Assembly: GCA_963718565.1 (NCBI GenBank)
Contig: OY970364.1
Coordinates: 1,696,001-1,760,000, forward strand
Origin: an uncultured Verrucomicrobiae bacterium
GTDB lineage: Bacteria > Chlamydiota > Chlamydiia > Chlamydiales > Rhabdochlamydiaceae
Length of the DNA: 64,000 nt
Direction: 5' to 3'
Shown: positions 1,763-59,386 of the stretch, one piece after another
Layout: each line of letters starts with the position of its first letter
Numbering within the stretch: position 1 is the stretch's first letter
Program-made: the position numbers and the translations under genes
Notes under the pieces: generated by a model
Databases searched by the model: none
Seen by the model: only the letters and a program-made list of their open reading frames with translations
Told to the model about the DNA's origin: nothing

Positions 1763-2974
1763 ATGATTGGGAACGTTGCGAAATTTTGTGCGGTCTTTTT
1801 TTGCATTTTCGGGTTGGAAATCGCATCGGCTACTGAGATCTATTCTTTCTTTTTACAACGTCAAGATGGAACGATTTTGGAGGGCTATTTTTCTCCTCCT
1901 AGCACAAGTAGTTCTCCCATCATTTTCGCAAATCAAGGATCATCTTGCCAAAGTATATTGCAGTGGCACAAAGATCTATGCGATCAAGCCAATTCCCTGG
2001 GTTTAGGGATAATCAGTATAGAAAAACAAGGGATTTCCAAAGAGAGTATTGACTTTTTAGAATATTATCAGACCAATTGTCTTCAAAAACGCATGGAAGA
2101 TTCGATGTTTTGCATTGAAAACATGCATCTTATCTGTCCTGAATGGGAAGGAAAAATGATTTTTTGGGGCGAATCTGAAGGTGGCATGATAGCAGCCAAT
2201 TTAGCTGCTCACACACCTCAAACAGCAGCCGTTCTATTATTTGCTACAGGTGGTGGTCTAAAACCGCGAGAAGAAGTAAAATGTTCGCTTCGTCTCCGTT
2301 TAGAAAAACATGGCGCGGTGCAAGATGAGATTGATCAATATATGATTTCCTTGGAAGAACAAATGGATGCAATGATACTCGACCCAACGCCAAATAAGCA
2401 ATTTTTGGGTAATACCTATAAATGGTGGACCTCTCTTCTCGCCGCAGATGAAGCATCACTGCCTCTCCATCAACATTCTCTTCCGATTTACCTTGCCCAT
2501 GGCGTTGAAGATAGTCAAATCCCTATTCTCAGTGCAGATCTTGCTGCTAAAAACTTAAAGGAAACAAATAGTCTCACTTATCATCGTTTGGAAGGCTATG
2601 GTCATAATTTGGATACTGTGGACATCCATACTGTGGCTTACCAGTGGTTACATTCGATTCTTTGCGGAAATGAACAATTGAATAATGACCAAATTGGTCT
2701 GACAGTTTCATCTGCAGCGCCTTCTTCAGAGGATTGGGAAACAGATATCGCGCATTACACTTTCAGTCTCGGTAGAGGAGAGACTCATGGAGGAGCAAAA
2801 GGAAGTAGAGACTCAGAAGGCAATGAGAACGCTTCAGTCGATGTTGGGGCTTCATATCAATTTGATAACGGCGTTAGATTGGACATAGATGCCGGGGCTT
2901 CTGCGAACAAAGACAGTCAAGGGAATACCAAAGGAGAAGTGTATGTTGAAGGAAGGGTTTCGAAAGATTTCTAA
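1763..2974 (+). CDS. Secreted alpha/beta-hydrolase with Gly-rich C-terminal beta-strand tail
   Basis: Signal-peptide-like N-terminus; GESEG nucleophile elbow, HGVEDSQIP (Asp), EGYGH (His); AGGAG RBS; paralog at 45558-46608. Confidence 0.85.
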   Translation: MIGNVAKFCAVFFCIFGLEIASATEIYSFFLQRQDGTILEGYFSPPSTSSSPIIFANQGSSCQSILQWHKDLCDQANSLGLGIISIEKQGISKESIDFLEYYQTNCLQKRMEDSMFCIENMHLICPEWEGKMIFWGESEGGMIAANLAAHTPQTAAVLLFATGGGLKPREEVKCSLRLRLEKHGAVQDEIDQYMISLEEQMDAMILDPTPNKQFLGNTYKWWTSLLAADEASLPLHQHSLPIYLAHGVEDSQIPILSADLAAKNLKETNSLTYHRLEGYGHNLDTVDIHTVAYQWLHSILCGNEQLNNDQIGLTVSSAAPSSEDWETDIAHYTFSLGRGETHGGAKGSRDSEGNENASVDVGASYQFDNGVRLDIDAGASANKDSQGNTKGEVYVEGRVSKDF

Positions 2975-4628
2975 TCTTTTAAAATATTTGGTGTTTCTTG
3001 TAATCGGTGTAACATGCACTGCTGTCTTAATCCATTTCTGTTTTAGCGGCTATTTTAGTTCCCATGAGATTAGCTATGACGAATATAATTTCCCTCTCAT
3101 TGATGCCGAATTGCAAGGGAAAAACTATTCATTAATTGTGGATCTAGGTTTCCGCTTTCCTTTATTTCTATGTAAAGACACATTGGACGGGATCGATAAA
3201 CAACCGCGAGGGGTAGGCCAATGGCATACCCTCGCAGGTCAAACACGCGAGGCACCTTCTTATCTTATTCCTGAAATGAGGTTAGGGAACCTAACCATGA
3301 AAAACATCATAGCTAATCAAATGATGGAAAATACGCGGCCTGGTCACTTGGGGGGGTTTTTCGGAGGAGAATTCAATCTTCTTTTAGATTTTCCTCATGA
3401 CAGAATCATCGCTTCGGATACTTTTTCCAAACTTCGGGGGAAAAAAATTGCTAACGATGATTGGATAAGCATTCCATTTGAGATGCATCGAGGTGGAATC
3501 GTATTTTCTGTCGATACTGACTTTGGGCCTTTAAGACTTGTTCTTAAAACCGCATGCACATTGAACCATCTCCGTTCGTCATTTTTTCTTTCTAATGCCC
3601 CTTTTCCTTCTGTCTCATCTTCCTTCTCCTTAGAAGGTAGGCATTTTGGCAATGTCAAATTTCATCCTATCGAATTACCAGAGATTCTGAATGAAATTGA
3701 TGGATTTATTGGTATGGATTTTCTCAAAAAACACGCTATTTATCTCGATTATGGGCGTAAAATCGCTTATGTTGAGCCACCTGAAAGTTATTTTGAGCAT
3801 ATTCCCGTCACTTTTGCTAGTCGTGGTAGCCCAACCATCAGTGTATCTATTGAAGATAATGCTTATCCTTTAGAACTAGATCTTGGCAGCTCTTTTCCAT
3901 TTTCTCTATGCGAAAAGACTTTACAAAATCTTCGCAAGATTTCTTATGGCACCGCAGAATGGAGTGATTTTAGAGGACAAAGATATAAATCACCTGCCTA
4001 TACAATTCCAAAGATCAGGATTGGCAATCTAACATTCGACAATATGATCATTCGACAAAATAGGGAGGATTTTCATGTCAATGCGACATTGATGAATACC
4101 CCACTACAGCCTATTGGTACTATTGGATTGCCCATTCTGGAAAAATACAATCTGTTCCTAGACTTTCAGCATTTTGCCATCTATGCCAGCAGTGACTACT
4201 TGGCCCTGCGGCAAGCCGGCCTTGTTTCTCATAATTTTCTAACTATCCCTTTCACCCTTCATCAAGATGGTATCTTGATCTCTGTTGAAACAGATATGGG
4301 CATTTATCGCCTCATCCTTGACACAGGCGCTACTCACACGGTGATACGGCATCCTCATCCAAACTTTACAAAGCAGTTCTGCCTAATGGGATGTGATTTT
4401 GGGTCACGCTCTATCATCCCTGTTGATTTGAGTTCTCAATTTGATTTTGATGGCTGCCTTGGTCTAGATTTTCTTCGCGAGTATCCTATTTTTATCGACT
4501 ATGCCAATCGAAGCATCCTTCTCGATTTACAATATGAAAAAGACAAGGAGTCTTCTAAATCGATTTCTAAAGTAGATGAGATTACACAAGTTAAGGACAG
4601 GGGAAATCTATTTGTTGTTTCGGCCTAG
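2943..4628 (+). CDS. Membrane-anchored multi-module retropepsin-like aspartic protease
   Basis: N-terminal TM helix; four modules with IVDLG, VLKTA, ELDLG, ILDTG and closing motifs such as DGFIGMDFL, GTIGLPIL, DGCLGLDFL; start overlaps upstream gene with GGAG RBS. Confidence 0.8.
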   Translation: MLKEGFRKISNLLKYLVFLVIGVTCTAVLIHFCFSGYFSSHEISYDEYNFPLIDAELQGKNYSLIVDLGFRFPLFLCKDTLDGIDKQPRGVGQWHTLAGQTREAPSYLIPEMRLGNLTMKNIIANQMMENTRPGHLGGFFGGEFNLLLDFPHDRIIASDTFSKLRGKKIANDDWISIPFEMHRGGIVFSVDTDFGPLRLVLKTACTLNHLRSSFFLSNAPFPSVSSSFSLEGRHFGNVKFHPIELPEILNEIDGFIGMDFLKKHAIYLDYGRKIAYVEPPESYFEHIPVTFASRGSPTISVSIEDNAYPLELDLGSSFPFSLCEKTLQNLRKISYGTAEWSDFRGQRYKSPAYTIPKIRIGNLTFDNMIIRQNREDFHVNATLMNTPLQPIGTIGLPILEKYNLFLDFQHFAIYASSDYLALRQAGLVSHNFLTIPFTLHQDGILISVETDMGIYRLILDTGATHTVIRHPHPNFTKQFCLMGCDFGSRSIIPVDLSSQFDFDGCLGLDFLREYPIFIDYANRSILLDLQYEKDKESSKSISKVDEITQVKDRGNLFVVSA

Positions 4629-5039: not shown

Positions 5040-6548
5040 TTGGACTTCATGAAAAAAGATTCCTCTACTGAAACCAATCCCCTAGGCAAGGTGATTGGCC
5101 GTGAAAATGAGAAGGAAATACTAAAAGAAATCATCGCATCCAATAGAGCGGAATTTGTCGCCGTCTATGGACGCCGGAGAGTAGGAAAAACCTATCTCAT
5201 CAGAAATTTTATAGCATCAACTCCATGTGCGTTTTTCCACGTTACAGGCATTCAGAAGGCCGCATTGGAAGAGCAGCTGGAAGAGTTTGCAAAACAAATA
5301 GGGGCTACCTTTTATCAAGATGCGTCGATTACCCCTAGGAAACGCTGGAGGGACGCTTTCGAAGATCTCACTCAAGCAATTTCCAAAATTCCACGGAATA
5401 AAAAAATTGTGCTCTTTTTTGATGAGCTGCCTTGGATGGCAACTCCCCGCTCAAAACTGCTTGCAGCCTTAGAGTTATATTGGAATCGCTATTGGGTGTT
5501 CGATCCCAGGATCAAGCTCGTTGTCTGCGGCTCAGCCACCTCATGGATTATTGAAAAAATCATCAATGACAAAGGCGGCCTTCACAATAGAGTAACTCGA
5601 ACGATTAATCTGAGGCCTTTTTCTCTTAATGAGACAAGACAATTTTTGAAAGCGCACCATATTGATCTTGAACATCGGCAAATTCTGGATCTCTATACTG
5701 TGTTCGGAGGCGTACCTCTTTATTGGTCTTATGTCCGTAAAGGTCGCTCTGCTCATCAGTGTATAGATGAGATGTGCTTCCAGAAGGATGGAGCTCTGGT
5801 TAAAGAATTTGGGCGGCTTTTTGCTTCCCTTTTTGAGGATCCCAAACCTTATATGGACCTCATTAGAATCGTCGCACAGCATCGATATGGGATTGGTCAA
5901 GCCGATCTAATCGCCAAGTCTAAACTCCCTCCCGGAGGAACCACAGCCCATCGATTGGAGCAATTAGAGGAAGCAGGATTCATCACTGCTCTCGTTCCCT
6001 TTGGCCATAAAGATAAAGGGGTCTACTACGTCATCGACGATGAGTATAGCCTTTTCTATTTGAATTGGATAGAGTCTAATTTGAATTCAATAGCTAAAAA
6101 GGCAAAAAACAAAGGATTTTGGCTGTCCCTATCTCAGAGGCCATCTTGGAAGAGCTGGTCAGGTCTCTCATTTGAATCAATATGCTATAAACATATCGAC
6201 CAGATTCGTCATGCCCTAAAACTAGAACCGGGGTCAATTGCATCGACTTGGCGTTATAAACCCCGATCTAAGACGGATCAAGAAGGAGCTCAGATTGATT
6301 TGCTTTTTGATCGTCCCGATGGCTCGATTACCATTTGCGAGATCAAGTGCTCCGATGGCCCTTTTGCTATCGACAAATCCTATTCACATGCCTTGTTAAA
6401 GAAGATGAATGTTTTTCGAAAGCAGACTAGAACAAGAAAACAGCTATTTCTAGCAATGGTGACCACCTTTGGCCTCCAGCCAACGATGTACTCGGAGGAA
6501 CTTGTAACAAATACTGTTGTACTCGAAGATCTATTCAAAGAGATGTGA
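5040..6548 (+). CDS. AAA/archaeal-type ATPase with wHTH and C-terminal PD-(D/E)xK nuclease-like domain
   Basis: Walker A GRRRVGKT, Walker B LFFDE, CGSA, C-terminal QIDLLFD...ICEIK. Confidence 0.85.
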   Translation: MDFMKKDSSTETNPLGKVIGRENEKEILKEIIASNRAEFVAVYGRRRVGKTYLIRNFIASTPCAFFHVTGIQKAALEEQLEEFAKQIGATFYQDASITPRKRWRDAFEDLTQAISKIPRNKKIVLFFDELPWMATPRSKLLAALELYWNRYWVFDPRIKLVVCGSATSWIIEKIINDKGGLHNRVTRTINLRPFSLNETRQFLKAHHIDLEHRQILDLYTVFGGVPLYWSYVRKGRSAHQCIDEMCFQKDGALVKEFGRLFASLFEDPKPYMDLIRIVAQHRYGIGQADLIAKSKLPPGGTTAHRLEQLEEAGFITALVPFGHKDKGVYYVIDDEYSLFYLNWIESNLNSIAKKAKNKGFWLSLSQRPSWKSWSGLSFESICYKHIDQIRHALKLEPGSIASTWRYKPRSKTDQEGAQIDLLFDRPDGSITICEIKCSDGPFAIDKSYSHALLKKMNVFRKQTRTRKQLFLAMVTTFGLQPTMYSEELVTNTVVLEDLFKEM

Positions 6549-7125: not shown

Positions 7126-7356
7126 GTAAATTACCCCATTTGCTCTCTTGAAATACGCGCGTCTCAAATAAGTTTTCTCCAAAATTCACCCCGTAAAAAC
7201 AAAAAAGTTCAAAAGAATCTCCAATCTGTAAAGGGGGGGGGTCTTTCAGTCCCCTGACTGGTGCTACAGCGGGAAATCCTCGCTTTTTGCTTCTCTTGTC
7301 GGATATGAGGGCTTTGAAGTATGCTGGTTAAAAACTATTCTCTTCAAAGGACAGTT

Positions 7357-9993
7357 ATGCGCTCTAAATTCTGGATCTCGATGTTACTCTGTCTTAGCTT
7401 TTCATTGGGATGGACTTCTCCAGAGCCCATTAAGCCGGTAGCTCCTGGGCTCAAACAACGGCAGCCCCATTGGCGTCCCAAAGTCTTGGAAAATTATCAG
7501 GAGGGACAACCCCAACGCGTTCTTTTTTACGAACAGATCGGGGCGACCAATGAAGCTCCTGTAAAGCAGGTGCTCTTTTATCGCAATGGTCAGATTAAGA
7601 CAGAGATGGATTTGATCGAGGTCGCAGAAGATTCCCCTGGAGCTAAAGAATGGAAATCGACAATTGTTCCGCATGGAATGAGTCTCTCTTTTTTCTCAAA
7701 TGGCCAGCCGGAAAGAGTTGCTTTTTATGATCGAGGAATTCTCCATGGAGAGGCGAAAATCTTTTATGCGAATGGAAAATTGCGTAGCCAATGCACCTTC
7801 AAACAAGGCGAGCGTCATGGGGAGATGATTTCTTATTTCGAGGAGGGAACAAAAGCGGAAGAGGCCACATTTGAAAATGGAAAGGTCATCGGCGAATTGA
7901 TCAGATATCATCCTAAAGGCAATCGCGCCGCATTAATTCCCTATGAGAATGCTGTTCCACATGGAAATGCAATGGAGTGGTATCCCAGTGGTGCTTTAAG
8001 AGCAAATTTACGCTATCAAAATGGGGTTTTTCATTCCGATGGGAAAAATCCCGCTGTAGTCATTTATGCGGAAGACCGTTCGATTCAAGAAGTCCAAGAT
8101 TTCAATCAAGGGGAACCGATAGGGACCCATCTTCGCTATTATCCCAACGGAAAAGAAGCTTACAAAGTCCAATATAAAAATGGGCAAAAGCAAGGGAAAG
8201 AGCAGTTTTTTGCACAAGATGGAAAAGTGATGGGTGAAGGGGAATATAAAAATGGGATTCCTTATGGCAAACATTGGCGCAATGCGGAAAATGGGACGCT
8301 AGTTTACCTCGCTGATTATGATAAAGAGGGCAAGCTTTTGGCTCCTGTAGAAGAATTTACCCCTGAGGGCAAAAAGATCGCAGAGTATTTCTTTCTTGAG
8401 GGTAAACGCCATGGTGTCTTCCGACAATGGTTTGCAGAGGGTACTCCTCATGTGGATTTCAATTATAATCATGGCGTCTTTGACGGAGAACAGAAAGAAT
8501 ATTACGAAAATGGCCAGATGAAGGTTAAGGCGTTTTATCACAACAATGCCAAGGATAAGATTTTTGAAGAATGGTATGAGAGTGGGCAAGCCTCAGCATG
8601 CTATGAATTGAAAAATGGCGTTAAGCACGGCCTTTGTCGTGATTGGTATCAGGATGGGACTCCTAAACTCGAAGAATTCTATGTGGATGGAAAGCTCGAC
8701 AAAACGCGAAAGGAGTGGCACGCTAATGGTGTGCTGCACTTGGTAGGCGATTTTGCTCTTGGCAAGAAACGGGGTATGCACAAGCAATGGAATGAAGCCA
8801 ATGAGCTGATCATGGAAGTGCGCTATGAAAATGATCTTCCCGTGGGGACTGCTAAAACCTGGTATGCGAAAGACAAGCTCAAGCAAGTCGTCCCATTTGA
8901 AAATGGCAAACGACAAGGAAAAGAAGAAGAGTATTATCCCAATGGGCAATTAAGAGCTGCCGTCGATTATAAGGAAGGCACGCCCGATGGAGAAATGAAA
9001 GCATGGTATGAAGATGGCACACTTTGTTCTGTGAAATCATTCCGTGCTGGTATTCCTATAGGAGAACACAAAGAGTATTTCTCCAAAGCAGATCTTCAAA
9101 ACGACCTCCTTCCAGAAAATGCTTCTAAAAAATCAGTGTTGCAACTCGCAAGCCATTTCATTTACAACGCAGAGGGGCAATTTCAGGGAGAACAAAAGAC
9201 CTATTATCCGGATGGGACGCTCCATACATTGATTATCTATGACAAAGGAGATCTCCACGGTGTCAAGGCGATGTGGGACAATCAAGGCAATCTTTTGGAA
9301 GAAGCCGTTTATGAAAATGGTAAACTCAATGGCCGTTTCTTTGAAAGAGTTCAAGATGGTCGTGAAATTATTTTCCACTACAAGGATAACCTGCGCGAAG
9401 GAATCCATGAGGTGTTTTATCCTTCCCATGAATATTTCGGCAAAGTCCGTGCACTCGAGGTGAATTTCGTCAACGATCTTACCGAGGGGGAAGCGATTGA
9501 ATACAATGAATCCGGAGTCAAAATTTCAGCAACTCCTTATGTCCATGGAATGAGAGAAGGAATTGCAAAGGTTTTTTCCGCTAAAGGCCAAATGTTAATG
9601 GCGATCGAATTCCACAATGATAAGCGCAATGGACCGCTGCTTCAATATTTCCCCGATGGCAAACTTTTTGTCGAAAGTTCCTATGTCAATGACCAGAGGG
9701 AAGGAGAAGAAAAGACTTATTATGAAAGTGGCAAACTCGCTAAGAACATCCCTTACAAAAATGATCAGATCCATGGTTTATATTGTGAATGGAATGACCA
9801 AGGAATTGTGACTTTTGAAGGAGAATTCAAAGAAGGCAAACGTCATGGCAAATTCAATAAGTATTACGATGATGGGAAGCCTCGCTTGCTGCAAACCTTT
9901 GTTGAAGATGAATTACATGGAATTAAAAAGAGCTTTGATCAAGATGGCATAGTCTCGGAAACGCGCTATGACAAAGGCGTCAAAGTTGGTTAA
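7357..9993 (+). CDS. Exported MORN-variant repeat (YwqK-like) protein
   Basis: Signal peptide followed by many repeats of the form YxxGxxHGxxxxYYxNG. Confidence 0.85.
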   Translation: MRSKFWISMLLCLSFSLGWTSPEPIKPVAPGLKQRQPHWRPKVLENYQEGQPQRVLFYEQIGATNEAPVKQVLFYRNGQIKTEMDLIEVAEDSPGAKEWKSTIVPHGMSLSFFSNGQPERVAFYDRGILHGEAKIFYANGKLRSQCTFKQGERHGEMISYFEEGTKAEEATFENGKVIGELIRYHPKGNRAALIPYENAVPHGNAMEWYPSGALRANLRYQNGVFHSDGKNPAVVIYAEDRSIQEVQDFNQGEPIGTHLRYYPNGKEAYKVQYKNGQKQGKEQFFAQDGKVMGEGEYKNGIPYGKHWRNAENGTLVYLADYDKEGKLLAPVEEFTPEGKKIAEYFFLEGKRHGVFRQWFAEGTPHVDFNYNHGVFDGEQKEYYENGQMKVKAFYHNNAKDKIFEEWYESGQASACYELKNGVKHGLCRDWYQDGTPKLEEFYVDGKLDKTRKEWHANGVLHLVGDFALGKKRGMHKQWNEANELIMEVRYENDLPVGTAKTWYAKDKLKQVVPFENGKRQGKEEEYYPNGQLRAAVDYKEGTPDGEMKAWYEDGTLCSVKSFRAGIPIGEHKEYFSKADLQNDLLPENASKKSVLQLASHFIYNAEGQFQGEQKTYYPDGTLHTLIIYDKGDLHGVKAMWDNQGNLLEEAVYENGKLNGRFFERVQDGREIIFHYKDNLREGIHEVFYPSHEYFGKVRALEVNFVNDLTEGEAIEYNESGVKISATPYVHGMREGIAKVFSAKGQMLMAIEFHNDKRNGPLLQYFPDGKLFVESSYVNDQREGEEKTYYESGKLAKNIPYKNDQIHGLYCEWNDQGIVTFEGEFKEGKRHGKFNKYYDDGKPRLLQTFVEDELHGIKKSFDQDGIVSETRYDKGVKVG

Positions 9994-40949: not shown

Positions 40950-42285
40950 TATAATGGTCCCCAAAATTTAGACCACTGTCTAAGCTAATATCCTCCCAAT
41001 GCGAGGAGGCCAAAATGGCCAAAACAAAAAAACAATATTCACCGGAGTTCAAGCTCAAAGTAGTACTAGAAGTGCTCAAGGGTGAGAAGACAGCAACCCA
41101 ACTCGCTGGCGAGTTGGGGGTACATCCCGTAGTTCTGTCGGAATGGAAAAAACAATTTATTGAGGCAGGACCTCAGATTTTTGTAAAGACCAGGAGGTCT
41201 AGGGATACAGCAGAGGGCAAAGAAAAGGCCGAACTGTTCGAACAGATTGGAAGACTCAAGATGGAGAACGAGTGGCTTAAAAAAAAATTGGGGGCTTTGA
41301 CCTGAATGAAAAACGGGCACTCATTGAACCTCACGATATCAAATTTTCCCAAAGAGCACAGTGTAAGCTCCTCGGAGTATGTCGATCTGGATTGTACTAC
41401 GAGCCACAGCAGCCTGGTGAAGAAGACTTGCGACTCATGTGCGCAATCGACAAACAGTACCTCGAAACCCCCTATTATGGGAGGCGTCGAATGACAGTGG
41501 CAATGAGAAAACTAGGATTTGTCGTGGGACAGAAAAAAGTGCGAACAGCGATGCAGGTGATGGGGATAGAGGCGATCTATCCAAAGCCGAACCTGAGCGC
41601 TGGGAATAAACAGCATAAAAAGTTCCCGTATTTACTGAGGGGCCTAATTGTTGATCGTTCCGATCAAGCTTGGGCAGCTGACATCACTTACATTCCATTA
41701 ACAAAAGGATTCGGATATCTGTTTGCAATCATAGACTGGTATAGTCGGTACGTGATTGAGTGGGAGCTCTCAAATCTGCTTGATACAGAATTTTGCATGG
41801 AGGCATTGCAAAGGAGTCTTTGGCAAAAAAGACCTGAGATATTTAATACTGATCAAGGTGTGCAGTTTACGAGTAGTCAATTCACCGGGAAACTTGAAGA
41901 GAATGGGATTAAAATCAGTATGGACGGGAAGGGTCGAGCTCTTGATAACGTGTTTATTGAGAGGCTGTGGAGAAGCGTGAAGTATGAAGAAATTTACCCG
42001 AAAGGATACGAGAGCATGAAAGAGGTTCGATCGGGGCTGAAAAAGTACTTTGAGTTTTACAACAACAAGCGACCCCATCAGGGTCTCGATTATCGAACCC
42101 CAGCAGAGGTGTATTATGGGACATAAGAAAAAGAAAGGGGCTTTGCCCCTTGAACCCCAGCAAATGGCTGACTGCCCTTTGCAAACCCGTGGGCTTTTGT
42201 ATAGGGCCCTGGGAGTTAGATTAAACAACAGAGGAGATTAGCTTAGATTTCTCGATTTTTGGTCTAGACAAAAGGAACCACTTTA
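40950..42285 (+). mobile_element. IS3-family insertion sequence, apparently intact
   Basis: Imperfect 26-bp IRs (..TAGACCA / TGGTCTA..), 3-bp TSD CTT, orfA/orfB organisation. Confidence 0.9.
41015..42126 (+). CDS. IS3 transposase OrfAB (orfA 41015-41305; -1 frameshift at A9 run 41279-41287 into orfB)
   Basis: OrfA HTH YSPEFKLKVV; OrfB DDE motifs WAADITYI, NTDQGVQF, DNVFIERLWRSVKYE; the -1 frame is open from the A run. Confidence 0.9.
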
Positions 42286-43783: not shown

Positions 43784-43926
43784 GCCGCTCAATTCATACC
43801 TCCTCGGAGACCTGTGGCAAGCACTGAATGTCATTTGGATCCATGCCTGATTGAGATCGATAAATGCAAAGCCTGGCATGGATCCAAATGACATTCAGTG
43901 CTTGCCACAGGTTTTTGAGGACGTAC
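43784..43926. mobile_element. Solo end of the IS66-like element with subterminal hairpin
   Basis: Near-identical to 47226-47368; ends GTTTTTGAGGACGTAC. Confidence 0.85.
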
Positions 43927-43959
43927 TAGATTTTCAGCTATGTACATCTCACTGGACAC

Positions 43960-45589
43960 TTACTGAAACCGAGAAGATTCTTTGTTTTTTTCGTATTGCA
44001 AATCGAGAAGAATCTGTCGATTGGTGTAGTCGATAAAAAATGGGTGCTCGAGAAAAAAATCCATTCCAAGAATACCATCAAAATCAAACTTGGAAGTTAT
44101 ATCTAACGCTCTAATAGAATGTTTTCCGAAATCATGCCCCATGATTTGAAATTTTTCAGTGGATGCTGGATGAGGAAGGCGTATGGCTGTACAGGTAGAA
44201 CCTGTATCGAGCACCAAGCGATAAGTTCCCACATCTGTTTTCACTTCAAGAAGGATGCCATCTGGATGAGGGGAAAAAGGGATGTTAAGAAGGTTTTTGG
44301 AAAGCAAGCCAGCTTGCTGAAGAAGCAAGTAATTACTGCTAGCGTAAATTGCTGAATGAGGAAAATCCAAGAATAAATTGTATTTTTCAAGAATCGACCT
44401 TCCAATCGCTCCAGGGAGAAGCAAAGGTTTGCCCTCCACTGTCGCATTGACGTGAAAATCCTCTCTATCTTGGTTGACATGCACACGTGGAAAACTGAGA
44501 TCGCCAATTTTAATCTCTGGGATAAAAATAGGTGGGCGATTCGTACTGTTGCCCTCTAAAATCATACCATGTGGATGTTCCGTATTTTGCTTTATGTATC
44601 TCTTGCAAAATCTCCTCGCTTAAAGAAAAAGAAAAAACACTCCCAGTATCAAGCTTGAATATATGCTCACGTCCTTCAAGTGACACATGAATCAATGGAT
44701 CTTTATGTCCATTAAAAGTTACAGGCACACGCTCAAAATATTCCTTGGGAGGTTCCAAATAAGCAATTTTATGCGTGTAATCGAGATACAAGGAATGGTC
44801 TTTCAGGAAATCCATGCCAATAAACCCATCAATTCCATTCAGAAGTTCTGGTAAATCGATGGGATGAAACGTGACATGTCCAAAATGGACTCCTTTTATA
44901 GAAAAAGGAGATGAGGTAAAAAAGAAGCGCGCATCGGGAGGAAAAAATGAAGAACGAAGGTGATTACACGTACATGACGTTTTAAGAGCAAGCTTTAAAG
45001 GTCCAAGATCAGTATCAACAGAAAAGACGATTCCAACTCGATGAAGCTCAAAAGGAACGCTCACCCAATCATTGTTAACAAGTTTTTTTTCTTGAAGTTT
45101 GGGAAAAGTATCGCAAGCGATGATTCTGTCATGGGGAAAATCTAAAAACAGATTGAATTCTTCTCCGAGAAATCTGCCCAAGTGACCACAACTCTCATCT
45201 TCCGTCATTTGATTAGCTATGACGTTTTTAAGCGTTAAGTTCCCTATCCTCATTTTTGGAATAAGATAGGAAGGAGCCTCGCATGTTTGGCCTGCGAAGG
45301 TATTCCATTGGCCTATCCCTCGAGGCTGTTTATCGATTCCGTCTAATGTTTCCTTGTATAGGAATAAAGGAAAACGAAAACCTAGATCAAAAACTAATGA
45401 ATAGTTTTTACCTTGCAATTCGACATCAATAATAGGGAAATTGTACTTATCATAACTAACTGCATGAGAACTAAAATAGCCTCCCGAACAGAAATAAACT
45501 AAGATAATAGCACCTGTTGTTCCACTTAGGAACAACAAAAACAAATGTTTTAAAAACTTAGAATGGTTGCGACACGCTTCCTTCAACAT
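43960..45589 (-). CDS. Retropepsin-like multi-module aspartic protease paralog, one frameshift near 44525
   Basis: Colinear with 2943-4628; motifs VFDLG, ALKTS, KLDTG, VLDTG; one extra T in a T-run joins the two ORFs. Confidence 0.8.
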
Positions 45590-46608
45590 GCGTTTCACCT
45601 CTGGTATTTCCCTGGCTATTTCTTTCACCTGAAGCTCCAGCCTTAACATCAAATCGCGTGCCATTATCTGTCTCATATGTAACCCCAACATCAACTGAAG
45701 CGCGTTCATTTCCTTTGTCATCTTTATCTACTCGTGCTCCAGCATGTGCTTCTCCTTTACCAAGAGTGAAAGCATAATGCGCGATATCTGTTTTCCAGTC
45801 TTCTGAAGAAGAGGGTACAGATGAAACTGCTAGAACAATTTGGTCGTTATTGAATTGTTCAATTCCGTAAAGAATGGAATTTAACCACTGGCAAGCTACA
45901 GCATGGATATCCGCAGTATCCAAATCATGACCGTAACCTTCCAACCGATGATAAGTGAGAGGATTTGTCTCTTTTAAGTTTTTAGCAGCAAGATCTGCGC
46001 TGAGAACAGGGATTTGGCTATCTTCAACTCCATGAGCGAGATAAATCGGAAGAGAATTTTGATTGAGAAATAATGATGCTTCATCCGCAACAAGCAGAGA
46101 AGCCCACCACTTATAGGTATTACCCAAAAATTGTTTATCTGGCGTTGGATCAAGGATCATTGCATCCATTTGTTCTTCCAAGAAAATCATATATTGATCA
46201 ATCTCATCTTGCACTGCACCATGGTTTCCCAAACGTTGACGAAGCGAGGATTTTATCTCTTCTCGCGGTTTTAGACCACCACCCGTAGCAAACAATAGAA
46301 CGGCTGCTGTTTGAGGTGTTTGAGCAGCTAAATTGGCTGCTATCATGCCACCTTCAGATTCGCCCCAGAAAATCATTTTTCCTTCCCATTCAGGACAGAT
46401 AAGGTGCATATTTTCAAGACAAAACATAGAATCTTCCAAGCGTTTTTGAAGACAATTAGTCTGTTGATATTCTAAGAAGTTGATATCTTCTCTTGAGATT
46501 CCTTGTTTTTCTATAGCAATCATCCCTAAACCGAGAGCATTTGCTTGATCACTTAAGTCTGCATGCCATTTTAGAGTGCTTTCACAGGACGAACCCTGAA
46601 TGGCGAAT
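45558..46608 (-). pseudogene. Alpha/beta-hydrolase paralog, 5'-truncated
   Basis: Homology to 1763-2974 starts at FAIQGSSCES, with an in-frame stop just upstream; signal-peptide region missing. Confidence 0.8.
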
Positions 46609-46744: not shown

Positions 46745-47368
46745 GTACGTCCTTAAAAACTCATGGCAAAAGTTGAAGACCATTTTGATCCATGCCAAAC
46801 TTACCACTTATCGATCTTGATTGGGCACGGATCGAAATGGTCTTCAACTTTTGCCAGAGTCTTCAAGGAAGTTAATGTACGTGCTACCAGTCAAGGTGTG
46901 GCCGGAGAGGCTGTTTGATAACGCTCATGAACAAATTGTGCTAAATCGATCGGATCCCCTCGAAACCACCGACTCAAATACTCCCAAAAGCTCACGCCAA
47001 GTCTGGCGCATGTCTGCTTGAGCGTCAATAGGCCGTCTCGAAATTGTCTGCCCTCTACGCTTTTGGTAGTGCCAGATAAAGCGAGATCCTTTTGGGATTC
47101 CTGTGGCTACAATGCGCACTTCCTGTTGTACTTTCTGTGGAACCAGAGCAGTCTAAATATAGGGCGCTCTGTTATCAAGCGAAAGTTTTATTAATGGGTC
47201 TGGGCGTTTTGTTCTGACTTTACAAGCCGCTCAATTCATACCTCCTCGGAGACCTGTGGCAAGCACTGAATGTCATTTGGATCCATGCCTGATTGAGATC
47301 GATAAATGCAAAGCCTGGCATGGATCCAAATGACATTCAGTGCTTGCCATAGGTTTTTGAGGACGTAC
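46745..47368. mobile_element. 624-bp non-autonomous IS66-derived element
   Basis: TIRs GTACGTCCT(T/C)AAAAAC; 8-bp TSD TATTTTTT (46737-46744, 47369-47376); contains transposase 3' fragment. Confidence 0.88.
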
Positions 47369-47490
47369 TATTTTTTTATATGACCCGACAGATGAAAAGT
47401 CAAGAGAGCAAATGCTCACAGAAAGGCAGCGGATCGAGCATTAAAATGAATTTTTATTTTTAATGCCCTTCATGTATTCTGAGCTACTTA

Positions 47491-47703: not shown

Positions 47704-49999
47704 ATGAAATTCTGTCTTTCCATTCTGGTGTTATTGACGATGGGTGTAGTTGCCCTTCCGATTGCAAGTCACGCAGATGCAAAAAAAGTCTCGAGTAGCG
47801 ATGAAGCGATTCAACAAGCAGTCAGCGAATTAAATCAGTACGCGAAAGTTCAAAGGGATTTAAATGTGCAAAATGCAGACCTTGCTTATGGCATGAGAAA
47901 AGCACTGGTGATTGCCGACCTTTTACTGGACCCTCAAGGCAAATTAAAAACGGATGTGCGCTCCACAATAAAATCCGCGTTTATTTCGACCACTCCTAGA
48001 GAGTACGAAGTCAATATGAGCCGGTTTCTCGACAACCTCGATCCTTCTTGGCAATCTTTCTTTGATCAGGTGGGGTTGCCAAAAGATCCGAATTGCGTGA
48101 GTCGCATTTCATTGCGGGCTCTTTTCAGCTTAGGATCCGGGCAGCCATTAACCGACAGACATGCGAAAGTGGCAGTGCTTGCCGCAATGCTTGCGCCTTA
48201 CAATCAAGGGCCAGTGGGCGACTGCTTCGCAGTCAACGACGTGATCCGCGATCATAACGAGTACTACCGCCATATTGCCGAAGATTGCTCTTCCATTGTG
48301 AGAAAAGGATATGTCGAACGCCCTGTCCATCATTCCTCGGATTATTTCTTTTTTCTTCCTAGTTTGGCGGATGACGATAGAGATCAGCCCATGGAAATTA
48401 CCGCTGAAGGGTTATTTGCAGGAACAGAGATCTCTATTTTCGACGCTCCCGGCTTTGCAGCAGCTCGTGCATTGATGGGAGGCGATTATATCGCCAACTT
48501 GGAAAGCGATGTATGGAATTCCCTACCTAAAAAATGCTGGGCAGAACTCCATCAAAGTGACCCCTTCTCAATGGATCCAAGCGACAGCAAAAATCATCGC
48601 CAAAAAGACATCTCATGCAGATGTCGATACTCTTATCCATCTTGGCGAATATGCTTTCAGCAGCCTCACCAATAACCCTATTCTTCGTGCCGTTGAATCT
48701 ACTTTTGCCGCGATGGCAGAAGATCGGGCCACAGACTCCACTCGTGGAAATATTAACAGCTGTGTTGCAGATACTTTAAAACAGACATGGAATCAATTGA
48801 AAAAAGTCAACGGCGCTGCCCAATTTAAGCAGGCGTTTGCTTACGTTCTCAATGCATGTTATCGCCTCCTCTATAATTTGAATATTCCTCTTGCGCAAGT
48901 CTCTACTGATGGCAGTTCCACTGATGGAGGATTCCAATTGTACAAGCGGATGCATGATTATCCCACTAGCCTTGGGACAAGAATTGCGACTCCCGAGCAG
49001 TTTAGACAGCTGCTCTTGTATGTAGTCAATAAAGTGGAAGCAGATTCAGGTTCGACGCCTGATTCACAATTGGTCGCAAGTCGTTTGAAAACGGCGATCA
49101 ATACTGACGATTTTTTAAAAAATCTATTCTGGAATTACGATAATGCGAACAAGCAGGAACCTGATCCCGTTAACAATTATCTCAAGCTCTCTCGTACGCC
49201 GATGCAAAGCTGCGATGGGGATAACCCTTTTGAGGTCGATGATATCGACACAGGAAAAACCTATGACAGCAATGTTCAGTCTTACACGCCTAAAAATCCA
49301 AACGATCTGATTACTTGGTGTTTACAGTTAGCAAAAATTGCGCCTGCAGAGATGATCCCCATGGATAGCCCTCAGCATGCATTCAATTTTATGCCAGCAA
49401 ATCCAGACATCGTCCAATACATTAAAACTGGCATGAAATCCCCCCAATGGCTAAAAAAAACACTCGTCATGCCAGGAATGCAGGTCGCTAAACGACAAAT
49501 CAGCACAGATGCTCAAAAAGCGCTCACACAAGGAATGTATAATTACCTTTCTGAGGTTCTCTCCGATCGTCAATCCTATCAGCAACTCGTCCAGAATCTT
49601 TCTCAGCAGACTTTAAGTGTGCAAGACTACTCTCAACAGCTGTTGAATGGGATCAATACACTTCTCAAGTCCGATGAAACCCAAGCCTATCAAATAGCCC
49701 TTGCTCTCGATGGAATCCTTTTTCAATCTCTATCGCCGCAAGATCAAGCGATTCTCGAGCAATCTGCCATTCGCTTCGCTTTTACTAACTGGAATGAGGG
49801 AGCAAAAAACATCTACTTTTGTGCGTATTTCAATCCACGCACAACACAGATTGGCTTTGGAACAATTTTCGAAGACAAAACTCAGTTGCAACCCATGGAT
49901 GAAAAAGCTTGGGTCGACAATCAACAATGGGATGTCAACTTAACTCCTTTTGCTCCAAAACTCGGGCTGGCCATGGGAGGGTTGAAACAGTTTCAATAG
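47704..49999 (+). CDS. Large secreted protein, probable papain/calpain-like cysteine protease; one frameshift near 48520
   Basis: GGAGG RBS, signal peptide, QGPVGDCF, later QHAFN and FTNW; two overlapping ORFs 47704-48675 and 48509-49999. Confidence 0.6.
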
Positions 50000-55115: not shown

Positions 55116-56867
55116 AAGTGTGTGTTTAAAAAACTTTATGGAATAAGTGCAAACGAGTTGGAAAAATAAACGATGAACTTTAAAAATTCAATCCCATTTT
55201 TGACGGCCGTAAAGTTCAGAGGGAATTATAAGAATATGATAGGCAATTCTTCAAGCTTTTGGGTTACAGCATTAGGTTCATTTTTTGGGAGCTCGTCGCA
55301 TTCCTTTTTCAGTTTGGATGCCTCAGCTCTTTTCTCAGGATTTACTTGTAACATGGAAAGGATGATTTTAACATATGGGTCAGAAGAAGACCGCGCATCT
55401 TCAAGAAAAAGGTTGTCGATGCTGGATTGCTCTAAGAACGCGATTGTCTGGAAGAATTTCACATCGGTTACAGTGGCTTCTGAAGGAGGTAGAATAGAGC
55501 ATTCACTACCAGTATAAATATGATAACATATGAGCCCTAGCCCCCATATATCTATGCAGGGCAGAGTAACCTTTTCAAAGGTGATATCTTCTTTTGTTTC
55601 GGGATTGCTTAAAGTGGGGAACTCCCTTACTAAGACCCTCTTAGCATATTCAGGGGCCATAAATCGAGGACTGCCACAACACTTACTTTTCCGCGCCCTA
55701 TCTTCTTTGGAAACAGAAAATGTAAAATCAGTTAATACCGAGTGAATGGCATCGTTATCCTTTTTTACAAGGACATTTTTAGACTTCACATCTCTATGAA
55801 CAACAAATTGTTCATGGACTGCACAAACAGCTTTAATTAGAGATACAATTAACTGTTGTTTTTGTTCGTCGCTTAACTTTTCTTTTAAAAGATCATGAAG
55901 ATCTCCAGAGTATAAATCCATGAGGGAATATGCTGCTGGCTTATTTTCTTCCAATATAAAACTCGTTTCTTTCTGGTAACTTCCTATGCTCATAAGGAAG
56001 AAGTTGTCAATTTTGATTACATAAGGAGAATCAATTTTCTTTAAAATAGCTGTCGAATTTTTACTATCTTCAATATCACTATCAGAAATCTTTATCGCAA
56101 CTTTTTTAACTTCTGTTTTGTCATTTTCTCCCGCCTCGTAAACAAACGTCTCGTAAATAGCTCCTTCGCTCCCTTTTCCAACAAGTTCCCTAAGATTAAC
56201 TTTGTATACAGAACCATAGCATACAGGGCTTCCTGGCCTTTGAATACAAAGGTAATCCGGCCCTTGCAACTGCTGAAAAGGTGGTGTCGCATAGAAATCA
56301 CCGTTGGGAGACACTTTGTGCGTTTCACGCAAAATTGCATATTTAATAGGAGTATTGCCTAAAGCGCTGCAATGGCGAGCCATAAATGTGTACGCTCGAT
56401 AGGCTGCTTCGACATTCAATACGGCAGGGGTTTCTGACTTGATTTCGGGTTCTAATAGTTTTTCATTTGAATTTTTTAGGAATTTTTCTGCTTCTTCGAG
56501 ACTTGTTTCATAGCTAGGATACATTCGTTTTAATAAATTTTGAACGAACTCTTTAATTTTTCCAGATAAGGTCGTCTGATAATACTTTTTCTCTGCTTCA
56601 ATTGCCACTTCGTAGATTAATGCCGTTTCCTTGAAGGAAATATAAGCTGATTCATGTGAAGAAATATAATAAGTTTTGCATAAAGATGTTTGATCGCCTT
56701 TGTCTTTTTTTTGCTGAATTTTGGCCAATTGGGATTGAAGTTGAGACTGAAGGTGGAAACTCAACCTCTCTAACCCTGTCTCTCCTTTTTTATAGAGGTC
56801 TAGATAATGATTGATAAAGATGTTTTTATTCTTCACGCATTGCTCATTAAACAGATCTGATTCACAC

Positions 56868-58900
56868 TGGGGTGTAAACTTTCTTTCAGAAATTCACAAC
56901 ATTACCAGTAAAAAATCCAGTATGATCCAGTCCCCCATTATCTAGAGGCAGCTGCCCTCGTTTTTTCTTCCGTTTCCTAAAAGGATTAAAGAGCTGACGC
57001 CTTTGCGAATAAATTGTCTCGCCAATATTCATTGCGGCCCACGCTTTCACTTGTTTTTTGTTACAGGTTCCTAGTGCTGCTTGAACAGTTTCTAAGTCTA
57101 ACTTTCCCAGACAGGCGGCCAATGACAGCACAAAAGGGGTAAATCCGTCCTTTGAGTCTTCATCCATCAATTGCTTTAACTTACCAAAACTAGACTCAAT
57201 AATTTCTGTGCTACCTAAAGCCACTTGATCGAGGTCTTTTGTCTGATCAATCACGAAATCAAGGATACTGCCTGCAAACTGATCAGCACGGACCCCTACT
57301 TGCAGGTTCTGTAGCTCTTTTTCCAACTCCTCTGCAGTTTTGTTGTGGAGGTGTTCTGTTCGAATTTTTTGTCTTACGATTCTCCCAATGAGCAACATCT
57401 CGGATATTTCCTTGATCATAGGCTCACTGGATCTGACCCATCCAAATTGCTCAAGCAATTCCCTCAAGTCCGCCTCGCTCTTTTCGACCTCACAATTCTT
57501 CTGTTCTATTTTTTTCTGATGTTCATTTTCCATTTTTTTGAGGTGATCTAGAATTTTATTTGCCCAGCCGGTTAGTTCGTCAAGATTCATATATCTAGCT
57601 TTACTCCTCTGACTCGGAGGGCATAGTGCTGCCCATTTCGTCCATTGGAGTTTCTGCTTCATCTGAGAGGCTTTCGACGCAAATTCTGTCCATTCAAGTT
57701 CCGCAGCTTCCACCCCCAACAAGTTGGCTATTTTGTGAGCAATATCATTCATTACGGGAATTTTTCTGCCTTCGGCTTCTTGGACGCTCTGCGTATACAA
57801 TCTGGTTGCAGATACAATATCCGATCCTTGATCATGACAAAATTGTCTGTATTGACCTACTGTCTCTTCACTTTTCTTGAGAATCTCATAGATGATTGGG
57901 CCACTTGTTTTTTCCAAAACCTCCAGGTGCAGAACGTGTACGTCTTCAAATGTCAATGCCTTAGCTTTCAAAAAAGTCGTAGCCCGTACGCCCAGAATCA
58001 AAAGACATTTTTTTGAGCCAATCTGAATAGATAAATCGATCATCCCAATCCAATCATTTGATTTCTGAATTGAGGTCAGCTTGTAATAACCCACCTGCAA
58101 GATCCAATCGCGAATCGCAGTATGAGAGGGCATTTTGCATTGTAGCCAAAAATAACAGCGAATGAACGCCTCTCTGGCTCCGCGAAGGCTTAGTCCTCCT
58201 GAAAGAATCAATAGGAGCGATATCAGGATAACAGTTGCCGAATAGCGCCGACGAGGGATTTTTTTGTCTTGTTCCCCCGGGAGGCTTGTTGCTGCATCTG
58301 CCATTTTTTTTTAAGTTCTTCGAACTCTTTAGCATGGGTAACAGCCTCTTGTTCGCGTAATTTTCTTTCTGCCTCGATCAAAGCCTCTTTTTCTGCGATT
58401 TCATTTTTTAAGGCTTTATTTTCTTGAGTTTTTTCTTCACACTTCTTTTTCCACTGGGCTCTACTGTGCTCAAGATCTAATGCTTTACCCTCTAGTGCCT
58501 TAATTTTTTCTGCTTTCTCGCGATTTCTCGCTTTGAATTCATCGCGACTCTCGCAAAGACGATGGCTTCGCTTACGCCAATCTCGTGATGGAACATTCAT
58601 AGAGCTGCTCTCCTAAAATTAAGACGAGCCATTTTGCATGATTGTTTTAACAGAGTCAAAAAAATTTCCTTAGAAGAGAATTTTCAATATCCCCCTACAA
58701 AGTATTGCATCAATAAAGCCCGATACATCGAGAGCGGCTCTTCCTGAGCCGATCTCGATGTATCGGAACAGCGCCGTAGGACGCTGGGAATATAACTGGG
58801 ATGAGTCAGAGGGTTTAATATCAGAGGGGGGATGTTACCGTTTCTTGCCGGAATTGTTGCTCAGAGAAAATTTCAAATATGGATCAAAGTTTACACCCCA
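56868..58900 (-). mobile_element. Unclassified two-ORF DDE-type insertion sequence, about 2.03 kb
   Basis: TIRs TGGGGTGTAAACTTT / AAAGTTTACACCCCA; direct repeat GATTCACAC on both sides. Confidence 0.9.
56886..58600 (-). CDS. IS transposase: coiled-coil OrfA (58223-58600) and OrfB (56886-58304), probable -1 frameshift at an A9 run
   Basis: OrfB acidic motifs MIDLS, HDQGSD, TEIIESSFG; OrfB is in the -1 frame at the ELKKK slippery run. Confidence 0.75.
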
Positions 58901-59149
58901 GATTCACACCGCCCCAAATTCAATATTGACATTTTAGTTTAACACCTTTGTTTAAGCTATTAAACTAATTATAACAATTTATAACAATTTTAACATTAAA
59001 TTTAAAATCAAAGTTTTAATGAAGGGCTTATCGCTAACTCCTTGAAAATAAGGATATTAAAGCCTTCTTGCCTCTAACTGACAATTTAATTCCTTAAATA
59101 ATTCAGAGGCAAAATGATAAAACTTCTTTGAATTCTTGGGTTATAGTTA

Positions 59150-59381
59150 CATACCACGCACTCGGTCAGGTTTTGTGAATTTGGACTAGAGCGAGGCAAG
59201 GCACAATCGAAGCCTGTGGTCCGAATGACGAAGCCATAGTGAAAACCATGGCTGCGGAGACATGAGAAGGCCTAGTAGACCTTCGCAGTGCAGAGCAGGT
59301 GAGCGAAGCGAACGGGGGGAGGATCGATTGGACAAAGCCGCAGCCAGTCCAAGTTTACAAAACCTAACGGAGCGCGGTATA
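59150..59381. mobile_element. Palindromic MITE family D between the kinase genes
   Basis: Imperfect terminal arms ataccacgcactcggtcaggttttgtgaatttggact / agtccaagtttacaaaacctaacggagcgcggtat. Confidence 0.65.
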
Positions 59382-59386
59382 GAACC

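Follow-up and report, generated by a model that had tools for sequence, protein, structure and literature searches.

A C-terminal beta-tail encoded directly ahead of a membrane-anchored pepsin-fold protein in chlamydiae: a candidate protease-substrate cassette

Why would a predicted exported hydrolase with a short beta-hairpin tail be encoded in overlap with an aspartic protease of its own, and which part of the hydrolase protein does that protease go with? The question is raised by a locus at positions 1763 to 4628 of a 64,000-nucleotide (nt) stretch of DNA from an uncultured member of the Rhabdochlamydiaceae (positions 1,696,001 to 1,760,000 of contig OY970364.1, assembly GCA_963718565.1), which we refer to as the window. 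Here, gene 1 encodes a protein with a predicted signal peptide, an alpha/beta-hydrolase domain, a linker and a C-terminal beta-tail, and the overlapping gene 2 encodes a transmembrane (TM)-anchored protein with aspartic protease motifs. A sequence-only reading of the window had singled out this pair as a possible surface-display or processing system.

The genomic linkage of the two genes follows the tail. A tail profile, built from 13 tails and searched against 1.84 billion representative proteins, matched 106 proteins at an expectation value (E) <= 1e-3 and 17 at E <= 1e-10, nearly all at their C-terminus. Among 129 genomes of the window's family, tail matches occurred in 33 and protease-family matches in 51. 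Each of the 49 tail matches was followed immediately, on the same strand and at -8 to +203 nt, by a protease-family match. The tail and protease genes overlap or abut, the ribosome-binding site of gene 2 falling within tail codons. In the genome of the window itself, all five tail matches (5/5) stand directly upstream of a protease-family gene, and a sixth cassette, missed by the profile, consists of a gene for a tail protein of 163 amino acids (aa; L006, 806-1297) followed by two protease paralogues. When 400 genomes were sampled across the phylum, 42 carried tails, with 21/89 in family f1, 9/69 in f7, 8/35 in f9, 1/5 in f10, 1/4 in f20 and 1/17 in f30; in no other family searched in this sample was a tail found. 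Outside the window's family, the protease was directly downstream of 19 of the 22 tail matches. The three exceptions were a contig that ends after the tail, a locus with the protease upstream and a contig end downstream, and a weak match (E 0.008) with no protease.

What precedes the tail is variable. Three kinds of N-terminal part were found: the alpha/beta-hydrolase, present in 13 of the 49 family tail matches, an endonuclease/exonuclease/phosphatase (EEP)-type phosphoesterase, and a leaderless acidic segment of ~60 aa. One tail gene of this genome encodes a 479-aa signal-peptide protein with no Pfam match of its own, whose close relatives match the EEP family, and it is overlapped by the gene for a 304-aa two-module protease with DLGS and DTGS motifs. 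The Pfam family PF03372 matched 11/96 tail proteins at E <= 1, and 5/26 and 9/18 tail proteins at E < 0.01. The tail proteins of sister families are small (~110-150 aa) and acidic, start with M-x-(I/V)-E-(G/S) and carry a WNG(R/H) motif (L066-L069, L071-L087), features also seen in the small tail protein at L006. These small proteins have no signal peptide, and their open reading frames (ORFs) cannot be extended upstream; their protease neighbours are anchored like gene 2.

For the hydrolase kind, a hydrolase-tail gene lies directly upstream of 10 of the 11 orthologous four-module proteases from other genomes. The adjacency of hydrolase and protease that the sequence-only reading had seen is thus common rather than rare, but the hydrolase is only one N-terminal kind of the conserved partner. 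Because EEP-type and leaderless small proteins bear the same tail beside the same protease family, what is conserved next to the protease is the tail and not the hydrolase, and the linkage tracks the tail through three N-terminal kinds and at least six chlamydial families. Upon comparing 11 hydrolase-type loci with their 5-kilobase flanks, the two cassette genes were the only ones shared. The sole other recurrent gene, an ATPase_2/AAA gene, was seen near the cassette in three of these 11 loci (window 5040-6548; L015, 6905-8416; L018, 41-1036).

Architecture of the two proteins

Gene 2 matched the Pfam family Asp_protease_2 (PF13650) at E 4.4e-9 (37.4 bits, above the cut-off of 24.3), a family that is also precomputed on most of 95 gene 2 homologues; an NCBIfam scan of gene 2 gave no families. 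Its AlphaFold2 (AF2) model reached a predicted local distance difference test score (pLDDT) of 87.8 and a predicted template modelling score of 0.79, with an N-terminal helix at residues 2-34. Since basic residues precede this helix and acidic residues follow it, the positive-inside rule suggests that the N-terminus lies inside and that the domains are periplasmic. In the predicted model, each half of the protein adopts a bilobal pepsin-like fold. Residues 281-531 superpose on whole pepsin-family chains with Z scores of 18-20 and a root mean square deviation (rmsd) of ~3 A over ~233 residues; for residues 37-281, tick cathepsin D (5n7q_A) was matched over 230 residues (Z 18.6, rmsd 3.1). Sequence identity in these superpositions is 9-16%. 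The top structural match was a putative endopeptidase of Bacteroides fragilis (9iy9; Z 19.9, rmsd 4.7, 254 residues, model 194-528), and a Foldseek comparison of the model with pepsin-like proteases gave E 1.7e-9.

On this modelling, gene 2 is predicted to comprise two tandem pepsin-fold units on a membrane anchor, with an Asp pair in the second unit only. The initial description of a TM anchor followed by four retropepsin-like modules holds for the helix and for the four motifs, which are all present in the window protein (Table 1). The four are not equivalent: in an alignment of 33 four-module homologues (alignment A2), the catalytic Asp is kept family-wide in two modules only. The two-module relatives that adjoin tails nearly always carry D(L/T)G together with D(T/S)G. 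Among the two-module proteases, a 412-aa protein (L070, 263-1501, minus strand) has a long C-terminal extension with a tail-like end (...GNVKAGVDVTWE), and judging from its sequence this may be a protease with a hairpin of its own.

The reading of gene 1 as a Ser-Asp-His alpha/beta-hydrolase with a linker and a tail of ~67 aa was borne out. The protein matched Pfam Hydrolase_4 (PF12146) at E 4.5e-7 (29.8 bits, above the cut-off of 27), and NCBIfam gave no family at its cut-off. The nucleophile elbow GESEG, a G-x-S-x-G motif with Ser138, is invariant along with Asp250 and His281 in alignment A1, which holds 29 homologues at 40-81% identity to the window protein and was also the set used for the AF2 model. 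That model has a mean pLDDT of 77.1 and is confident in the hydrolase domain, for which the top Foldseek matches were monoacylglycerol lipase and feruloyl esterases (E ~1e-13). Linker residues 305-336 have pLDDT < 50, and the monomer model shows no helix ahead of the tail.

The tail itself is ordered in the AF2 model and conserved in homologues. Its strands span residues 339-349, 355-366, 371-383 and 389-401 (11-13 residues each; block pLDDT 65-77), and the protein ends in VEGRVSKDF. The C-terminal residue of the 29 homologues is Phe in 23, Trp in one and Leu in one, and four are extended. For a broader view, we used a set of 96 library tails, from which we left out P0186, P0190 and P0271 (low-complexity or unrelated repeat proteins), the 6891-aa match P0201, which came without its matched stretch, and P0070, P0072, P0066, P0060, P0042 and P0073, whose ids fell outside the selected range. 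The tail match ended at most 6 residues from the C-terminus in 90 of these 96 proteins, and the last residue was Phe in 51 and Trp in 22 of the 90 (73/90 together). In the column profile of the 96 tails, V/I/A/G alternate strictly with S/E/K along the strands. There are two strongly conserved (K/R)-D-x-(D/E)-G-N loops, in the first of which Gly is conserved at 100%, Asn at 86% and Asp at 90%. The two hairpins are joined by a short (D/E)-x-G turn, and the C-terminus is aromatic. Ahead of the first strand lies a hydrophobic junction that reads Y-[IV]-[FLI]-[SC]-R-G-x-G where it can be aligned; it is YTFSLGRG in the window protein, whereas EEP and small forms frequently have (I/V)LCGG.

The tail matched no family in Pfam and no sequence in the Protein Data Bank (PDB). 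Against the PDB sequences the profile returned flagellin alone, at a not meaningful E of 0.66, and Pfam scans of the 13 tails (E <= 10) and of the 96 tail proteins (E <= 1) gave no family that recurred on the tail.

The longest ORF of gene 2 runs from 2889 to 4628 (579 aa), and the ATG at 2943 gives 561 aa, as in the database entry P0077. An AAGGAG Shine-Dalgarno sequence stands 7 nt 5' of this ATG, within the codons of the tail residues K-G-E-V, so the working start of gene 2 is probably at 2943, with a 32-nt overlap with gene 1. In this stretch (window 2925-2945), the AAGGAG of gene 2 overlaps the codons of the conserved KGEV residues. The conservation of KGEV in hydrolase-type tails may therefore be due in part to the ribosome-binding site.

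Table 1. Features of the cassette in the window (coordinates as window positions; modules compared over the 33 sequences of alignment A2)
Feature	Position	Strand	Description
Gene 1	1763..2974	+	403 aa; signal peptide, alpha/beta-hydrolase domain, linker, C-terminal beta-tail; from ORF, Pfam Hydrolase_4, AF2 and Foldseek
Predicted Sec signal peptide (MIGNVAKFCAVFFCIFGLEIASA)	1763..1831	+	our own reading of the sequence; modelled helix 3-19, low pLDDT
Alpha/beta-hydrolase domain	1835..2662	+	catalytic codons Ser138 2174-2176, Asp250 2510-2512, His281 2603-2605
Linker (aa 301-336)	2663..2770	+	modelled disordered; conserved end motif DW.TDI..Y(V/T)FS(R/L)G
Beta-tail (aa 337-403)	2771..2971	+	two hairpin repeats, four amphipathic strands, two D-x-(D/E)-G-N loops, terminal Phe
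Gene 2 (probable start)	2943..4628	+	561 aa; TM-anchored, two predicted pepsin-fold units; from ORF, Pfam Asp_protease_2 and AF2 model
N-terminal membrane anchor of gene 2	2973..3044	+	helix 2-34 in model; basic residues before, acidic after
N-terminal pepsin-fold unit (modules 1 and 2)	3051..3785	+	alignment A2; structural superposition on 5n7q_A
C-terminal pepsin-fold unit (modules 3 and 4)	3786..4535	+	Asp pair D313 (3879-3881) and D460 (4320-4322)
Module 1			window VDLGF; most relatives IGS; catalytic Asp not conserved
Module 2			window LKTAC; most relatives NTT; catalytic Asp not conserved
Module 3			window LDLGS; most relatives LDLGS; D313 invariant
Module 4			window LDTGA; most relatives DTGxT; D460 and T461 invariant
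Copy 2 of gene 1	45558..46607	-	5'-truncated, without start codon; tail retained, ends VEGSVSQPF
Copy 2 of gene 2	43960..45721	-	broken into ORFs at 44510-45721 (403 aa) and 43960-44565 (201 aa), which overlap

Candidate mechanism and rival explanations

We tentatively read the pair as a dedicated protease-substrate cassette, at a rough probability of 45%, in which the gene 1 product would be handled or cut by the protease at the junction with the tail, and the tail itself would probably insert into a membrane. The gene 1 product would be exported via Sec as a lipase/esterase-type hydrolase followed by a flexible linker and the ~65-aa tail. The gene 2 product, made by translational coupling to gene 1, would be held in the inner membrane by its single N-terminal helix with both units in the periplasm, where it would recognise the tail encoded next to it. 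Binding may fall to the dead N-terminal unit, and the live C-terminal unit (DLGS...DTGxT) would cut at the hydrophobic junction, itself conserved, that leads into the first tail strand. Such a cut would free the N-terminal part from the tail, which would then insert into or assemble on a membrane.

The domain architecture, the modelled folds, the conserved Asp pair, the amphipathic tail and the gene linkage are computed results; binding of the two proteins, the cleavage and its site, the periplasmic topology and entry of the tail into a membrane are inferences. Several points weigh against this reading. The first catalytic motif of the live unit (module 3) is mostly DLG rather than the canonical DTG or DSG, which makes activity uncertain. 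A tail was detected upstream in only 49 of 115 protease-family loci, a lower bound given that the profile missed at least one tail, and at L023 no hydrolase-tail gene precedes the four-module orthologue. Related genomes cannot be counted as independent samples, although the linkage still holds across paralogues, N-terminal kinds and families. It is hard to explain how the leaderless tail proteins would meet a periplasmic protease, and this weighs against all Sec-dependent readings. Finally, one protease gene per substrate gene is unusual for a catalyst, and a stoichiometric partner such as a chaperone would fit the gene arrangement equally well.

The last point leads to the alternative that survives best, namely that gene 2 encodes no working protease but a membrane-tethered periplasmic chaperone or assembly factor specific to the tail, its pepsin-like clefts holding the cognate tail until it is folded or delivered. 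Lipase-specific foldases, which are encoded downstream of their lipases, provide a comparison. The strict one-to-one pairing of the genes with overlap or translational coupling would fit such a role, as would the retention of an N-terminal pepsin-fold unit that has lost its catalytic residues and the atypical DLG as first motif of the live unit. However, even among families with only ~25-30% identity, the two Asp residues of the C-terminal unit stay invariant or almost invariant, which is hard to explain without catalysis, and the DLG of module 3 is replaced by DTG at the same position in some relatives (L066, L073, L086). We consider a pure chaperone unlikely.

A more far-reaching proposal is that tail and protease form an unrecognised chlamydial sorting or export system, in which oligomeric tails would make small pores or anchors in the outer, host or inclusion membrane, the cargo brought there would be lipid-active enzymes (esterases, EEP phosphoesterases), and each cargo would depend on a private aspartic protease as its maturase; the leaderless forms would be ancestral and attacin- or gloverin-like. 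We give this proposal only a small chance of being right.

The sequence-only reading had compared the tail with the anchors of type Vc autotransporters, and in the corresponding rival explanation the tail is an outer-membrane anchor of this trimeric kind: three tails would build a 12-strand barrel that displays a surface esterase, and the protease would be an accessory or releasing enzyme. A type Vc anchor comprises the C-terminal ~65-70 aa of its protein, with four beta-strands and a terminal aromatic residue, and the tail resembles it in position, size, strand number and C-terminal residue. The four amphipathic strands are of membrane-spanning length, the loops alternate between short and long, the enzyme forms carry a Sec signal, and language-model features of the tail place it near the Phage_OMP cluster (0.90), which is a lead only. 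The analogy nonetheless found no support in sequence: YadA_anchor (PF03895) matched nothing at E <= 1 anywhere in this genome, and none of the 13 tails at E <= 10. In further contrast to type Vc proteins, the tail follows a globular enzyme and a linker modelled as disordered rather than a coiled-coil stalk, its hairpins vary in number (three in P0188 and P0199), the small tail proteins are leaderless, and a protease gene is always attached. Also, the hydrophobic face of the strands is mostly Val, Ala and Gly, with aromatics at the C-terminal end only. A type Va autotransporter, whose barrel domain has ~250-300 aa, does not match either, the tail having ~65 aa and four strands and the Pfam scans showing no autotransporter family. 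An anchor of the trimeric type appears quite unlikely.

Alternatively, the tail could be the product itself, a membrane-active glycine-rich hairpin peptide comparable to insect attacin, gloverin and diptericin that is made as the C-terminal end of a precursor and released by the protease, with the enzyme forms as later fusions that would reach a target membrane through the tail. In line with this idea, the smallest and most widespread form of the cassette is an acidic leaderless pro-segment with a tail and a protease. For two different tails, the nearest named language-model feature clusters included Attacin_C (0.93/0.87), Gloverin (0.92/0.88) and a diptericin cluster (0.84), and one of the 13 tails touched Pfam Gloverin (PF10793) at E 0.011. 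These feature scores, however, are leads that fall in the range of chance matches, with shared-feature counts < 170 for the named clusters, and unnamed giant-virus and phage clusters ranked first for both tails (0.92-0.94, likewise a lead only). Gloverin and Attacin_C (PF03769) are both absent from the 25 families listed for the 96 tail proteins at E <= 1, and the leaderless forms have no evident export route. We regard a peptide product as very doubtful.

That the two genes have no functional link and merely travel together as a duplicating unit, the tail being an appendage unrelated to the protease, would suit the multi-copy, often decayed cassettes and their variable contexts near insertion sequence (IS) remnants but is highly improbable, as the adjacency outlasts replacement of the N-terminal part and persists in at least six families, neither of which is predicted by hitch-hiking alone.

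Cassette copies and neighbouring features

The window contains the cassette twice, as the sequence-only reading had stated, but only copy 1 (1763-4628) is intact. The inverted second copy is real. Repeat comparison within the window gave arms of 1920-3014/45518-46612 at 81% and 2992-3815/44714-45537 at 78%, and an alignment of copy 1 (1925-4556) with copy 2 (46607-43972) has 78% nt identity over 2597 aligned columns, far above chance. The hydrolase gene of copy 2 has lost its first ~52 codons including the signal peptide, with stop codons immediately upstream, and its protease gene carries many insertions and deletions of a length not divisible by three. From these sequence features, copy 2 is a pseudogene in decay rather than a second intact cassette. 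The genome is a single contig of 2.28 Mb and holds a third, more divergent copy elsewhere, whose protease is intact (58% identity) but whose hydrolase is reduced to a 133-aa remnant made up of its end and the tail. Three of the six cassettes in this genome are degraded or partial. Upstream of this third copy (L013, 2618-3429), several short signal-peptide ORFs are built almost wholly from glycine/asparagine repeats of the GGNGGNGG type.

Both window copies have IS-remnant repeats at 97-99% identity in their vicinity (749-1061 and 46764-47076; 43784-43934 and 47226-47376). Copy 2 is bracketed on both sides by a 151-nt direct repeat (98%), and its homology to copy 1 ends ~150 nt from one IS remnant. 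A simple segmental duplication that took in the nearby IS remnant was considered and rejected, because the remnant is repeated directly and the cassette is inverted.

Elsewhere in the window, an IS3-type transposase pair (an HTH_Tnp_1 ORF, then an rve integrase-core ORF) occupies 41015-42126, and MORN_2 repeats make up nearly all of an 890-aa signal-peptide protein at 7321-9993 (E 1.6e-69). At 47704-49999, two ORFs of 323 and 496 aa overlap; they have no Pfam match and may represent a single large gene that a frameshift has interrupted. At 55483-61430, the direct repeat families D3, D5 and D6 (73-79% identity) hint at a series of paralogous genes.

Known systems and meaning of the cassette

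The view that the pairing is not a named system stands. The homologues found, one of them in the amoeba-grown relative Neptunochlamydia, are named only "hypothetical protein", "Aspartyl protease" or "Peptidase A2 domain" in databases, and literature searches on chlamydial aspartic proteases and on the pair found no published description of the tail-protease pair. The closest parallels share parts of the arrangement. Sortase/LPXTG, exosortase/PEP-CTERM and the type IX C-terminal domain with PorU each combine a C-terminal module with a specialised processing enzyme, and they resemble the cassette in placing a conserved module on otherwise unrelated exported proteins. In these sorting systems, however, one enzyme serves many scattered substrates, whereas each putative cassette substrate has its own protease gene, of the aspartic class and with a different tail family. 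Among the membrane-associated aspartic proteases of bacteria, SpoIIGA and PerP each serve one dedicated substrate: SpoIIGA acts on pro-sigma-E and is encoded beside it, and PerP acts on PodJ. The cassette would share with both the tie of an aspartic protease to one substrate and with SpoIIGA the adjacency of the genes; substrates, topology and architecture are unrelated, and neither system has a tail module.

In predicted fold, gene 2 is akin to the A1 pepsins and to bacterial proteins with two retropepsin domains such as 9iy9, each half being bilobal and the C-terminal half having one Asp per lobe. It differs from A1 pepsins in having two tandem units on a membrane anchor, one of them dead, in a first motif of DLG instead of DTG or DSG, and in a unit size of ~250 aa against ~325 aa, besides the low identity noted above.

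By analogy, two rickettsial enzymes may serve as precedent for such a pairing. APRc, a retropepsin of Rickettsia, was reported to process the autotransporters Sca5/OmpB and Sca0/OmpA in vitro (PMC4140852). A later report assigns the maturation of rickettsial autotransporters in vivo to RapL, a periplasmic peptidase whose annotations include alpha/beta hydrolase, and questions the in vivo role of APRc (PMC10414592). Like the predicted gene 2 protease, APRc and RapL belong to an obligate intracellular bacterium and are located in the envelope, and they act on proteins with a C-terminal beta-domain, as gene 2 would. APRc has a single dimerising retropepsin domain where gene 2 would have tandem pepsin-fold units, neither rickettsial enzyme is encoded one-to-one beside its substrates as the cassette protease is, and the rickettsial substrates carry full autotransporter barrels, compared with a 65-aa tail in gene 1.

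Overall, the cassette is real and conserved and wider than first seen, and it is best filed as a variant of the theme of a dedicated protease plus a C-terminal module, with components that are unannotated. To our knowledge, environmental chlamydiae have few characterised routes by which enzymes reach the envelope or host membranes, and their lineage-specific genes are mostly hypothetical. Against this background, the tail defines an unannotated C-terminal domain family, with 106 representatives in the protein library and no Pfam model, and it comes with a near-exceptionless rule in the searched genomes: the tail domain is encoded directly ahead of a membrane-anchored protein of predicted pepsin fold. 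The pair supplies an enzyme-substrate or enzyme-partner candidate for bacterial aspartic proteases of a class that is poorly understood, a handle on the deployment of esterase and phosphoesterase domains, and an annotation marker for dozens of hypothetical gene pairs. Should the tail prove to insert into membranes, it would rank with the smallest membrane-inserting modules known on enzymes.

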